A DNA stretch of 64,000 nt from Alphaproteobacteria bacterium (GCA_965220745.1 CBDCQT010000013.1:704001-768000), one strand, 5' to 3'; positions 18,157-26,924 are shown, counted from the stretch's first letter. Notes: a model not told the origin generated them from the letters alone. Translations and numbers: made by a program.

Positions 18157-18560
18157 CCATCCTGCCCGAGACATCGGTCGGCCCGCGATGGTGGAGAACA
18201 TCGCGGACGGCATTCGCGCGGCGATGGCCGACGCGGGGACCGGCGATCCGGCGGACGTCCACTACGTCCAGACCAAGACGCCGCTGCTCACCATCGACAT
18301 GGTGCGGGACGCGCACGCGCGCTGAGACCTTGGCCGAGGTGGTCCGTGAATTGATGGGGGTTGGCGCACCAATGGCACCATCGGGCTCGGCATCGCGGTC
18401 GTGCTTGGCGAAGTCGCCATGCCCTGGGCCGACGAAATCTGCCACAGCGTCGACCTCTGCTCATCGATCGCCTCGTGCTCGTCGGGCGTGGAACTCGACC
18501 GCGGGAAGATCGCCCTCTTCGGCAATGCGCCGGGGGTCGGCGGGCGCTTCCGCATCGTCC
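18157..18560 (+). pseudogene. Fragment of barbiturase/cyanuric acid hydrolase (ring-opening amidohydrolase)
   Basis: DIGRPAMVE...[16 protein letters not shown], stop at 18323, then LGIAVVLGE...[12 protein letters not shown]...GVGGRFRI; frameshifted and truncated at both ends. Confidence 0.8.
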
Positions 18561-18564
18561 CAGA

Positions 18565-19206
18565 TCAAGGGCGGACGCAACATCCATCCAGTATGACTCG
18601 GGTCATCGTCTCGGCTGCGGTGTCGAAGTCATTTCTCGTGAGCCGTCGCTGCCTGAGCACGTCGGCGGCCAACATCCCGAAGTCCGCATAGAACTGGGTC
18701 GCGGACCACAGCACGATGAAGAAGTGGCGCGGGTCCACCGGCGCCATCTTCCCGAGGCGGATCCACTCCTCCACCACATGGGCGCGCTGGTCAGTGACCT
18801 CGCGAATGTGCTGGCGCTGGCGCCGCTCCAGGAACTGCGCGCCGCGCAGGATCTCGTTGGCGAAGAAGCGGGATTCCGTAGCGTGGCGGCGTGAATACTC
18901 GAGCTTCGCGCGAATGTAGGCAGCGATGGCCTCGCGCGGTTCGCGCTCGGACACAATGTGCTCGAAGGCTCGGTCCCATTCCTCGATCAGGCGCTCGATA
19001 ACCGCCGCGTAGATGCTCTCCTTGGTCGGAAAGTAGTAGTAGACGTTGGTCTTCGGCAGGCCGCTGACCCGGGCGATCTCCTTCATGTGCGTGCCGTGAA
19101 AGCTCTTGTCGGCAAAAAGGCCGACGGCGGCGCGCAGGATCTTTTCCTCGTTCCGGGCCCGGATACGCGGCGTCCCCCCCGCATCTTCTCGCTTCGTTTT
19201 CGTCAT
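18565..19206 (-). CDS. TetR-family regulator, RutR-like
   Basis: [42 protein letters not shown] typical of the RutR group. Confidence 0.85.
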
Positions 19207-24982: not shown

Positions 24983-26025
24983 GCGGCATCAGCATCCGCG
25001 CGGGCGCGGTGGTCCGCACGCTCGCTTTCATCGTGCTGGCGCTCGCGCTCTGCGGCGTCGTCTTCGAGCTCGCCGGCTACTCGGCGCTCCTGATGCTCGA
25101 AAGCGTCGTCGAGGGCGGCTTCCTGCGCGCGGGCGGATGGGCGCAGAGCCTGCGTTGGGCGCTCCCCCTCTTCATCACCGCGACCGGCGTCGCGATCTCA
25201 TTCCGCTGCGGCTTCTTCAATATCGGTGCACAGGGCCAGTTCTACGTGGGCGCCATCTGCGCCGCCTTCGTCGCCGATGTTCTCGGCGGCGCCCCGGCCG
25301 CCCTCGTGCTGCCGACGACCTTTCTCGCCGGCATGACGGGCGGCGCGCTCTGGGCGCTCTGGCCGGGATATCTCAGGCTCCGCTCGGGCACTGACGAAGT
25401 CATCACGACGCTGATGGGCAATTTCATCGCAGCGCTCGCGTTGGTCTACGTCACCTCCGGCCCGCTCAAGGACCCCTCCGGCACCGGCCAGCAGGCGGCG
25501 AGCCCGCTACTGCCGGCGGCCTATCGCATCAGCGATTCCCAGGGTATCTCGCCCGCCATCATCGGCATCGCAGCCGCCGTCGCGCTCGCCATGTGGGTCC
25601 TGGTCAACCGCACGCCTTTCGGCATGCTGGCGAGCCTGGCCGGGCGGAACCCGACCATGGTGCGCTTTCAGGGTGCGCGCCTCTGGACCCTGGGACTTTC
25701 GAGCTTCCTCATCAGTGGCGGGCTGGCCGGGCTCGCAGGTACCATCGAGCTTCTCGGCCCGACCGGGCGCATCGCGAGCGGCTTTTTGCCCGGCCACGGC
25801 TTCACCGCAGTGCTGATCGCGCTGGTCGCGAACCTCTCGGTGCTCGCGACTGCGGTCGTCAGCATGTTCTTCGGCGGCCTTGCGTCGGCTGCGCTCTACC
25901 TGCCGATCCTCGCCGGCCTACCGGCCGCTGCCATCGACATCTTCAATGCCTCCGTCGCGCTCTTCATCACCGCGAAGTCGGGATTGCTGGACCGCCTGCT
26001 GCGGGCAGCGAGGCTCCCCACATGA
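24979..26025 (+). CDS. ABC permease
   Basis: Hydrophobic; FNIGAQGQ, EVITTLM. Confidence 0.9.
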   Translation: MSGISIRAGAVVRTLAFIVLALALCGVVFELAGYSALLMLESVVEGGFLRAGGWAQSLRWALPLFITATGVAISFRCGFFNIGAQGQFYVGAICAAFVADVLGGAPAALVLPTTFLAGMTGGALWALWPGYLRLRSGTDEVITTLMGNFIAALALVYVTSGPLKDPSGTGQQAASPLLPAAYRISDSQGISPAIIGIAAAVALAMWVLVNRTPFGMLASLAGRNPTMVRFQGARLWTLGLSSFLISGGLAGLAGTIELLGPTGRIASGFLPGHGFTAVLIALVANLSVLATAVVSMFFGGLASAALYLPILAGLPAAAIDIFNASVALFITAKSGLLDRLLRAARLPT

Positions 26026-26924
26026 CCGAGTTCCACGAGTTCATGGTGGCGATCCTGCGCTCCGGCACGCCGCTGGTCTACGTCACCATGGCGGGCGTCA
26101 TCGCCCAGCGCGCCGGCGTCTGGCACCTCGGCCTCGAAGGCGTGATGATCGTTGGTGCCTGCGCGACGATCCTCGGCATCGTGCTTACCGGCTCGTTTGC
26201 GGCCGCCATCGTCATCGCCTGCGTGCTCTGTGTTGCCGCTTCGGTCCTGCTCTGGTTCGTGATCGAGAAGCTGGGCGCCAACCCCATCATTGCGGGACTC
26301 GGCCTCACGGGGCTCGGAATCGGCGGGACAGCGCTCGCCGTCCAGGCGCTCTTCGGCAGCCTCGCCGCCGTGACCGCACCCTTCGGCGTGCCCAGGCTGG
26401 GCGCCGCTTTCGGCCCCTACGGCGCGCTCTCGATCTTTGTGCTGATGATGCCCTTCGTCGTCTGGAGCATGTGGGTGCTGCTCTGCCGCACGCGCTTCGG
26501 CCTGCGGCTGGCCGCTGCCGGAGAGCACCCGCTGGCGGCGCGCAGCGTCGGCACCGATCCGGCCCGTGTCAGGCTCATCGCGCTCGCCGCAGGCGGGGTT
26601 CTCTGCGCCATCGGCGGCGCTGAGCTCGCAGCCGGCGGCCTCACCATCTTCGCTCAGAACATGACCGCCGGGCGCGGCTTCATGAGCTTCGCCGCCGTCA
26701 TCTTCGGCGCGGGCCACCCCATCGCGGCCGCCTTCGCCGCGATGTTCTTCAGCCTGGTGGGGGTCGCGGGAATCAGGCTGCAGCTCCTGTTCGGCGCGAG
26801 CATCCCGCACGACGTGCTGCTCTCGCTGCCCTATCTGGCGACGATCCTCGGCGTCTGGATCAGCGGCCGTATGCGCGGCGGCGCCAAGGCCGCCACCGAG
26901 GCCTCGGAGCTGCGCGATTACTAG
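26022..26924 (+). CDS. ABC permease
   Basis: LGLEG, TRFGLRL.AAGEHP, MTAGRGF, LPYLAT. Confidence 0.9.
   Translation: MTEFHEFMVAILRSGTPLVYVTMAGVIAQRAGVWHLGLEGVMIVGACATILGIVLTGSFAAAIVIACVLCVAASVLLWFVIEKLGANPIIAGLGLTGLGIGGTALAVQALFGSLAAVTAPFGVPRLGAAFGPYGALSIFVLMMPFVVWSMWVLLCRTRFGLRLAAAGEHPLAARSVGTDPARVRLIALAAGGVLCAIGGAELAAGGLTIFAQNMTAGRGFMSFAAVIFGAGHPIAAAFAAMFFSLVGVAGIRLQLLFGASIPHDVLLSLPYLATILGVWISGRMRGGAKAATEASELRDY

Follow-up and report, generated by a model that had tools for sequence, protein, structure and literature searches.

The window analyzed here, a 64,000-nucleotide stretch of DNA from an Alphaproteobacteria bacterium (GCA_965220745.1 CBDCQT010000013.1:704001-768000; G+C about 70%), contains a gene cluster headed by a protein related to uracil-DNA glycosylases (UDGs), which we term UDGL for UDG-like. 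To our knowledge, the UDG superfamily is a standard example of a fold used solely to excise bases from DNA. In the window, UDGL is followed by genes for a BetA-like GMC flavin oxidoreductase, a NIPSNAP protein of the dimeric alpha/beta-barrel (DABB) type, and an ABC importer of BMP/PnrA type, composed of a Bmp binding protein, a duplicated ATPase and two BPD_transp_2 permeases. A RutR-like regulator is transcribed divergently from UDGL. The entire cluster lies between a PPK2 gene and a MobF/TraI relaxase (Table 1). Open reading frame (ORF) and domain searches of the window found all of these genes and motifs at the positions given in a first-pass annotation of the same DNA.

The genes are tightly packed. 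Only 3 nt separate UDGL from the GMC gene, and the first three genes, UDGL, GMC and NIPSNAP, are translationally coupled. Overlaps of 4 nt join GMC to NIPSNAP, the ATPase to permease 1, and permease 1 to permease 2. The ATPase start at ATG 23402 is the first in-frame ATG downstream of the end of the binding-protein gene, and the likely start of the regulator is Met7, at 19206. For UDGL, the true start is probably ATG 19376, because the proximal of two palindromes upstream overlaps the alternative ATG 19331 and because most homologues have 284 aa.

Table 1. Positions of the cluster genes and other features in the window
Feature	Position	Strand	Evidence or remark
AtzD/TrzD/barbiturase-family pseudogene fragment	18167-18559	+	TIGR02714 positions 124-256 of 366, E 1.2e-33
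RutR-like TetR-family regulator	18565-19224	-	TetR_N 2.2e-12; TetR_C_3 1.6e-41
Operator-like palindrome TGAC-N6-GTCA, distal	19298-19311		Regulator-UDGL intergenic region
Operator-like palindrome TGAC-N6-GTCA, proximal	19332-19345		Overlaps ATG 19331
UDGL (UDG-like gene)	19376-20230	+	284 aa; longer ORF from 19331, 299 aa
BetA-like GMC flavin oxidoreductase	20234-21892	+	GMC_oxred_N 3.6e-57; GMC_oxred_C 1.3e-38
NIPSNAP (DABB) protein	21889-22215	+	PF07978, 2.9e-30
BMP/PnrA-family periplasmic substrate-binding protein	22293-23366	+	PF02608, 3.4e-35
Duplicated ABC ATPase	23402-24982	+	ABC_tran, two stretches
ABC permease 1	24979-26025	+	BPD_transp_2, 3.4e-35
ABC permease 2	26022-26924	+	BPD_transp_2, 1.5e-24; ATG at 26022
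MobF/TraI relaxase	27551-30745	-	
Mobile-element genes	1777-4494, 10657-11883, 27551-32588, 35366-39445, 44466-49076		Window spans of hallmark genes

Conservation and mobility of the cluster

Related loci were gathered from species-representative genomes, metagenomes, two further genomes and an annotated Sinorhizobium plasmid. We defined a near clade by a UDGL at least 50% identical to the window protein and counted those loci that have at least 7.5 kb of downstream sequence (n = 17). The GMC gene is directly next to UDGL in all 17 loci, and the full set of eight genes (RutR-like regulator, UDGL, GMC, NIPSNAP, BMP, ATPase and two permeases) is present in 15 of them. Of the two exceptions, locus L091 carries a pyrimidine-nucleoside phosphorylase gene at the NIPSNAP position, and the transporter is missing from L013. 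Of the 20 loci with upstream sequence, 19 have a divergent RutR-like gene, L096 being the exception. The linkage of UDGL to the GMC and ABC genes is more than chance, and the functional proposal of the first-pass annotation, which had been made to depend on this linkage, stands in this respect. The components themselves are conserved as well: the GMC protein has a mean column identity of 76% over the 17 cluster copies, permease 1 keeps 62-94% identity in the relatives, and permease 2 is likewise conserved.

The flanks vary from genome to genome, and the cluster therefore moves as a unit. The adjacency of UDGL and GMC spans genera, plasmids, one conjugative element and two clades. The cluster is rare, being found in 2 of 400 other genomes of a class-wide sample and in 1 of 400 others of a phylum-wide sample. 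Among plasmid records, 36 contain a match, of which 31 are from Sinorhizobium and 33 are predicted to be conjugative. Rarity combined with mobility is what a niche catabolic trait typically shows. The copy on pSymA of S. meliloti AK57 (L179, 12865-19685) has the GMC, binding-protein, ATPase and one permease gene each split into at least two coding sequences, and may be decaying or contain frameshift errors of the assembly. An anti-phage defense role was considered and dropped because the cluster proteins have no PADLOC family match: seven of the eight gave no specific match, and the ATPase gave generic ATPase matches only.

UDGL keeps the uracil pocket of family-1 UNGs and lacks their intercalation loop

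The motifs of UDGL are GQDPY (101-105), LLLN (189-192) and HPAAAD (268-273). The AlphaFold 2 model has a pLDDT of 94.1, and the top Foldseek matches listed were all family-1 UNGs (E about 1e-10), with a TM-score to the target of about 0.7. By sequence, UDGL matches solved UNGs at E 1e-13 to 1e-5. It scores 69.6 bits with the ung equivalog model TIGR00628, under the cut-off of 185.75, and 21.9 bits with the Pfam UDG model PF03167, under the cut-off of 24.3. As judged from the predicted structure, UDGL is a divergent family-1 UNG-like protein, with confidence in the fold.

To locate the conserved positions, 46 family members with 28-70% identity were aligned and compared with eight canonical UNGs. 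G101, P104, F116, N192, H212 and W216 are invariant in the 46 sequences, and D103, Y105, H268 and P269 are conserved in at least 90%. By correspondence with UNG, the family keeps the Asp that activates the water, the Tyr, the stacking Phe, the Asn that reads uracil and the His of the leaving group. In motif B, only the HP is conserved. The SPLS of HPSPLS is replaced by a stretch that varies across the family and contains insertions and deletions, so that the Leu-intercalation loop of the eight canonical UNGs is missing family-wide. The serine of the Gly-Ser loop is not conserved either. In the "PPS" loop, the Ser is mostly retained as S-L/V-R and the prolines are not. Furthermore, UDGL has an N-terminal extension and three insertions relative to UNG: about 12 residues after the IFP motif, 7 residues with W124, and a helical segment of about 30 residues with W159. 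Pro replaces the His after the Tyr, and Glu117 replaces the Ser after the Phe. The isoelectric point is 4.9-5.5 in four of the five near-clade proteins listed, which is a weak hint since, in net charge and isoelectric point, the family overlaps with UNG. For canonical UNGs, it is known that the Tyr of GQDPY excludes 5-substituted uracil and that catalysis requires the flanking DNA phosphates.

UDGL homologues occur in at least 830 database clusters at E <= 0.001, a count that may include canonical UNGs. The top 120 are 74-92% identical and mostly 281-284 aa long, and 84 representatives remain at E < 1e-30 at the 50% clustering level. Databases and plasmid records name them "uracil-DNA glycosylase" or "hypothetical protein". 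The host genome encodes three other UDG-superfamily proteins, and a canonical family-1 Ung was not found in it. A complex prediction for GMC and UDGL gave a score of 0.00 and was counted neither for nor against an interaction.

Several relatives have unusual architectures. P0124 and P0148 are read-through or fused UDGL-GMC gene calls in public data and are possibly artefacts. In P0181 and P0205, UDGL relatives are fused to an N-terminal domain of about 235 aa that belongs to no known family; this domain has one stand-alone homologue (P0272), weak Atlas leads to EthD-like proteins (0.82) and an AlphaFold 2 pLDDT of 58.6, and it may conceivably be a DABB domain of the NIPSNAP kind. P0132 (522 aa) has an N-terminal half of UDGL type, 68% identical to the window protein, that runs into the molybdopterin cofactor-binding domain MoCoBD_2 (6.5e-66), and is probably an assembly or gene-call chimera. 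A Dactylosporangium sp. locus (L020, about 10001-11500) encodes a UNG-like region with GQNPY, in which Asn replaces the catalytic Asp, and with HPNPAAQG for HPSPLS. It continues in frame into a C-terminal part of about 250 aa of unassigned family, and the 782-aa ORF is probably over-extended at its 5' end.

The regulator pocket is altered at the positions facing C5 and N1

The regulator combines TetR_N with a YcdC-type C-terminal domain and shares 34% identity with E. coli RutR across 213 aa. It scores under the cut-offs of the RutR equivalog models, with 168.5 bits versus 368 for TIGR03613 and 151.4 versus 230 for NF011584. In the uracil contacts described for RutR, W77 and W167 stack, K101, Q171 and Q179' form hydrogen bonds, and L74, L78 and L134 pack against the ligand; Leu78 clashes with the C5-methyl group of thymine, and the L78A mutant takes thymine (PMC4325133).

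The cluster regulators do not have the full RutR contact set (L74, W77, L78, K101, L134, W167, Q171 and Q179). In RutR numbering, W77, Y97, K101, W167 and Q171 are invariant among 19 of them. Asp occupies position 78 in 18 of the 19, and L, V or M occupies position 179, again in 18, with Leu179 in the window copy. The exception at both positions is L013, the locus without a transporter. L74 and L134 are conservatively changed in 18 of 19, L013 having Arg at position 74. The pocket thus still fits a uracil ring and is altered exactly at the positions that face C5 and N1. It could accommodate a uracil with a polar C5 substituent, such as hydroxymethyl, and equally an N1-substituted uracil, that is a nucleoside, with a sugar hydroxyl reaching the Asp. 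Because Leu78 is replaced by Asp and Gln179 by a hydrophobic residue, and because the score falls under the RutR cut-offs, the effector is probably not plain uracil.

The palindrome TGAC-N6-GTCA occurs five times in the window, compared with 0.69 matches expected, and two of the five lie between the regulator gene and UDGL. Of the 18 other loci listed, all except L013 have one to three palindromes of this kind in the same intergenic region.

The oxidoreductase, the NIPSNAP protein and the binding protein

The GMC protein scores 673.1 bits with the PRK02106 subfamily model, above the threshold of 605, which places it among BetA-like proteins. By the equivalog model TIGR01810, it is not the choline dehydrogenase BetA (581.7 bits versus 732.1), and betB and betI are absent from the gene context of the cluster GMC. 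The solved enzymes closest to it are choline dehydrogenase, a chloramphenicol primary-alcohol oxidase, alcohol oxidases, pyridoxine 4-oxidase and hydroxymethylfurfural oxidase. The solved relatives of the NIPSNAP protein are exclusively structural-genomics proteins without an assigned function. The binding protein is nearest to BmpA and PnrA-type lipoproteins (E 1e-19 to 1e-22). Solved members of the BMP family bind nucleosides, riboflavin, or purine and triazine bases.

Accessory genes and the distant clade point to pyrimidine nucleosides

Additional genes are found in the clusters of relatives. A pyrimidine ribonucleoside hydrolase of RihA type is encoded in L007, L009, L011, L091, L092, L094, L169 and L179, the last being the S. 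meliloti plasmid. A cog0402-type amidohydrolase of about 510 aa, most closely related to deaminases and triazine hydrolases, is encoded in L008-L011, L091-L094, L169 and L179. Moreover, L091 carries the pyrimidine-nucleoside phosphorylase PyNP besides RihA and UDGL. The presence of RihA-type, deaminase-type and PyNP genes in relatives indicates that the theme of the cluster is pyrimidine nucleoside utilization, in agreement with the pyrimidine uptake and catabolism proposed in the first-pass annotation. Since L091 has RihA, PyNP and UDGL together, UDGL should act on a substrate of its own.

We also examined a distant clade, in which UDGL is at most 42% identical to the window protein and which provided seven usable loci. 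In four of the seven (L014, L097, L098 and L099), a pyranose-oxidase-like GMC gene is found no more than 10 kb from UDGL, and a large amidohydrolase is encoded in L014, L015, L098 and L099. Further genes of the distant-clade cluster encode GDPD-type phosphodiesterases, an S8 peptidase and proteins resembling nucleoside phosphorylases (PNP_UDP_1-like, with 25 bits right at the Pfam cut-off). That UDGL, a GMC protein, an amidohydrolase and a further nucleosidase occur together in both clades, although the GMC enzymes are not orthologous, speaks more strongly than any other observation for a biochemical module that the clades share. In L099, the N-terminal half of the 939-aa amidohydrolase (13690-15100) gave a weak match to PF03167 (E 0.0088, 16.6 bits), and the distant-clade amidohydrolase may contain a second, very divergent UDG-like domain.

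An AtzD-family relic beside the cluster

The AtzD/TrzD/barbiturase-family fragment next to the regulator gene holds two in-frame TGA codons and is not a full-length intact gene. It is 71% identical to aa 120-248 of an intact copy elsewhere in the host genome. This copy and its counterparts in two related genomes score above the cut-off of the cyanuric acid amidohydrolase equivalog model. The first-pass annotation had counted a barbiturase relic as a neighbor of the putative operon. The fragment is real, but it is private to the window and resembles cyanuric acid hydrolases: none of the 30 related loci carries an AtzD-family gene in its flanks, and the relic was ruled out as a cluster component on this ground, so that it says nothing on the pathway. 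In the window's genome and the two relatives, a cyanuric-acid-amidohydrolase-type gene is paired with a CodA-like amidohydrolase (385-388 bits, under the cut-off of 438) in a conserved two-gene module of its own (L175, 6693-9062; L176, 6657-9067; L177, 6751-9102).

Discussion

In the best reading, the region forms a self-contained operon, mobile by horizontal transfer, that imports a pyrimidine nucleoside and converts it inside the cell. The gene content, the motifs, the fold, the linkage kept in two distant clades, the pattern of the regulator pocket, the operators and the mobility are observed; all substrates and reactions of the following scheme are what we infer. The BMP-type ABC importer would take the compound into the cell, where it would release the RutR-type repressor from the two TGAC-N6-GTCA operators. 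UDGL, GMC and NIPSNAP would then carry out the cluster-specific chemistry. UDGL would cleave, by hydrolysis of the N-glycosidic bond, a free uracil nucleoside on which ordinary nucleosidases do not act, GMC would oxidize a primary alcohol of the same molecule, either the 5-hydroxymethyl group of the base or the 5'-CH2OH of the sugar, and NIPSNAP may help in some further step. That UDGL frees uracil from a free, non-standard nucleoside and that GMC oxidizes a primary alcohol of the same compound is, as far as the sequences allow a judgement, just short of an even call. We hold a little more tentatively the broader proposal that this clade has left DNA repair and, together with GMC and the DABB protein, provides the signature enzyme of an undescribed bacterial pathway for unusual pyrimidine nucleosides under the control of a retuned RutR paralogue. 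The substrate could be 5-hydroxymethyl-(deoxy)uridine or -cytidine, derived from the DNA of phages or dinoflagellates or from oxidized DNA, or a nucleoside that is first oxidized on the sugar.

We considered two variants of this scheme, which differ in the alcohol that is oxidized and carry similar weight. In the first, nucleosides of 5-hydroxymethylcytosine or 5-hydroxymethyluracil (5hmU) would be cleaved and deaminated, and the base then oxidized towards 5-formyl- or 5-carboxy-uracil. The Asp of the regulator and the relatives of GMC favor this variant; it is opposed by the conservation of Tyr105 and by the absence of a known decarboxylase from the cluster. Oxidation of 5hmU by GMC, already suggested in the first-pass annotation, is plausible: Asp78 in 18 of 19 regulators and the primary-alcohol oxidases among the GMC relatives speak for it, and the Tyr kept in at least 90% of the 46 UDGL sequences speaks against it. 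In the second variant, an alcohol of the sugar such as the 5'-CH2OH would be oxidized, and UDGL would hydrolyze the oxidized nucleoside. This variant is favored by the uracil-specific pocket, by the presence of RihA and PyNP alongside UDGL, by the resemblance of the distant-clade GMC to sugar oxidases and by the retained "PPS" serine, and it is opposed by the lack of downstream sugar-acid genes in the cluster.

Several observations weigh against a nucleoside-cleaving role of UDGL. The phosphate requirement of UNG means that activity on free nucleosides would require new catalytic features. Because classical nucleosidases stand beside UDGL in relatives, UDGL is not simply the nucleosidase of the cluster, and where RihA or PyNP is already present a further such enzyme is not obviously needed. 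The hints on the substrate conflict: the conserved GQDPY Tyr disfavors a 5-substituted base in the pocket of UDGL, and the regulator Asp favors one. The retained "PPS" Ser could still mean a contact with phosphate or DNA. The GMC enzymes of the two clades are non-orthologous, so their chemistry may not be common to both. No enzyme for a later step, either a decarboxylase or sugar-acid genes, was recognizable in the cluster, and no publication on this UDGL family or cluster was found in the literature. By analogy, the Bradyrhizobium diazoefficiens protein BdiUng (Blr0248) is a caution, since it is an active DNA glycosylase in spite of lacking a classical motif B (PMC5449639). The repurposing of the UDG fold for free nucleosides, as put forward in the first-pass annotation, is therefore upheld in part: the linkage and the nucleoside theme support it, and the coexisting nucleosidases and the DNA activity of BdiUng do not.

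The foremost alternative is that UDGL is still a DNA glycosylase, perhaps one that prefers single-stranded DNA, which is co-induced with pyrimidine uptake to clear the uracil or 5hmU that is misincorporated when these bases are abundant in the cell, and that the metabolic genes carry out catabolism without it. The UNG catalytic and uracil-pocket residues are all kept, the "PPS" serine mostly so, and no canonical family-1 Ung was found in the host genome. BdiUng, moreover, excises uracil, 5hmU and xanthine from single-stranded DNA (PMC5449639). Nevertheless, we consider this alternative unlikely. In all 17 loci, UDGL is the translationally coupled first gene of an operon for transport and catabolism, and its pairing with a GMC enzyme returns in the distant clade; the Leu loop and the Gly-Ser serine are gone family-wide, the near-clade proteins are acidic, and three other UDG-superfamily genes are present in the genome.

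UDGL could also be a non-catalytic uracil-binding subunit or sensor of GMC, or its adjacency to GMC could be biochemically meaningless. The tight coupling of the two genes and the fused or read-through calls P0124 and P0148, perhaps artefacts, would agree with a subunit. The water-activating Asp and the leaving-group His, however, are conserved in at least 90% of the family, which is unexpected for a mere binding module, and the adjacency is kept across genera, plasmids, a conjugative element and two clades, making both forms of this explanation very improbable. Least probable is an action of both enzymes on the free base, in which UDGL hydrates uracil at C6 and GMC dehydrogenates the carbinol to barbiturate as a molybdenum-free first step of an oxidative pyrimidine pathway: separate nucleosidases and a deaminase able to supply free uracil in both cluster types, a uracil pocket that would hold an Asp-activated water next to N1/C6, and the adjoining relic with its intact copy elsewhere in the genome speak for it, but we downgraded it by co-occurrence, since an AtzD/barbiturase-family gene is found in only 2 of 14 other UDGL genomes, both of the window's own taxonomic family and with copies that score above the cyanuric acid hydrolase cut-off and have a CodA-like partner gene, none of the 30 related loci has the relic, and no ring-opening enzyme is conserved in the cluster.

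The comparison with known systems shows which parts of a free-nucleoside operon would be new. UDGL shares with family-1 Ung/UNG the fold, GQDPY, the stacking Phe, the Asn of LLLN, the motif B His, the His/Trp of the SH..GW type and the C-terminal ..PIDW. It differs by the absence of the Leu-intercalation loop and the Gly-Ser serine, by being about 55 aa longer in all, and by always residing in a metabolic operon. BdiUng, described as a "new class" of UDG, is likewise alphaproteobacterial, with a motif A of family-1 type but without a classical motif B. It has a family-4-like fold, GQDPA, YVMVN about 35 residues past motif A, and proven DNA glycosylase activity (PMC5449639). In contrast, UDGL has a family-1 fold, GQDPY, and LLLN 87 residues after motif A. 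BdiUng was not among the 47 PDB sequence matches of UDGL.

As for E. coli RutR and PydR, the cluster regulator is divergent from a pyrimidine operon and has palindromic operators with TGAC/GTCA half-sites. It keeps the stacking Trp pair, Lys101 and Gln171 of RutR, and unlike RutR it has Asp for Leu78 and a hydrophobic residue for Gln179 (18 of 19). The importer has the same component set as PnrA/TmpC/BmpD-type nucleoside importers, although it matches solved members at just E 1e-13 to 1e-22.

RihA-type and DNPH1/Rcl-type enzymes hydrolyze the N-glycosides of free nucleosides or nucleotides. The reaction type is that proposed for UDGL; the folds are unrelated, and RihA-like genes coexist with UDGL in the extended clusters. 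In fungal thymidine salvage, thymine 7-hydroxylase and iso-orotate decarboxylase convert 5hmU via 5-formyl-uracil and 5-carboxy-uracil to uracil. The cluster would have intermediates in common with this branch if GMC oxidizes 5hmU. It differs from the fungal branch in employing a flavin GMC oxidoreductase rather than an Fe/2-oxoglutarate dioxygenase, and no Amidohydro_2 decarboxylase was seen in the cluster. The fold and all of the protein families are known. New are the conserved metabolic context, the absence of the DNA-intercalation loop throughout the family and the retuning of the RutR pocket.

If the free-nucleoside reading is true, a member of the UDG fold in small-molecule pyrimidine metabolism would widen the repertoire of this fold, and the annotation "uracil-DNA glycosylase" on Sinorhizobium megaplasmid records would be corrected. 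The cluster could also show how bacteria use modified pyrimidines. The switch from Leu78 to Asp in the regulator is a directly testable handle on the effector.

The mobile element and its other genes

An integrase, a relaxase and a coupling protein lie within one stretch of the window, as in integrative conjugative elements, and the cluster is placed inside this putative element. The hallmark genes include two adjacent tyrosine integrases (1777-4494), a Toprim/DUF7146 primase-like gene and a TrwB-type coupling protein, besides the relaxase. Further genes of the mobile element encode an Eco57I-like methylase, an Sbno-like helicase (1536 aa) and PIN toxins. Directly upstream of the relic lie a REase-ARP-type restriction endonuclease-like gene (15957-16790, +, 1e-07) and the PPK2 polyphosphate kinase gene (16797-17795, -, 2.9e-106); neither is kept beside the cluster in relatives. 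In one ORF of the mobile element (41340-42416, -), a Macro domain (4.6e-20) and a 2OG-Fe(II) oxygenase domain (3.1e-21) occur together, an unusual pairing.

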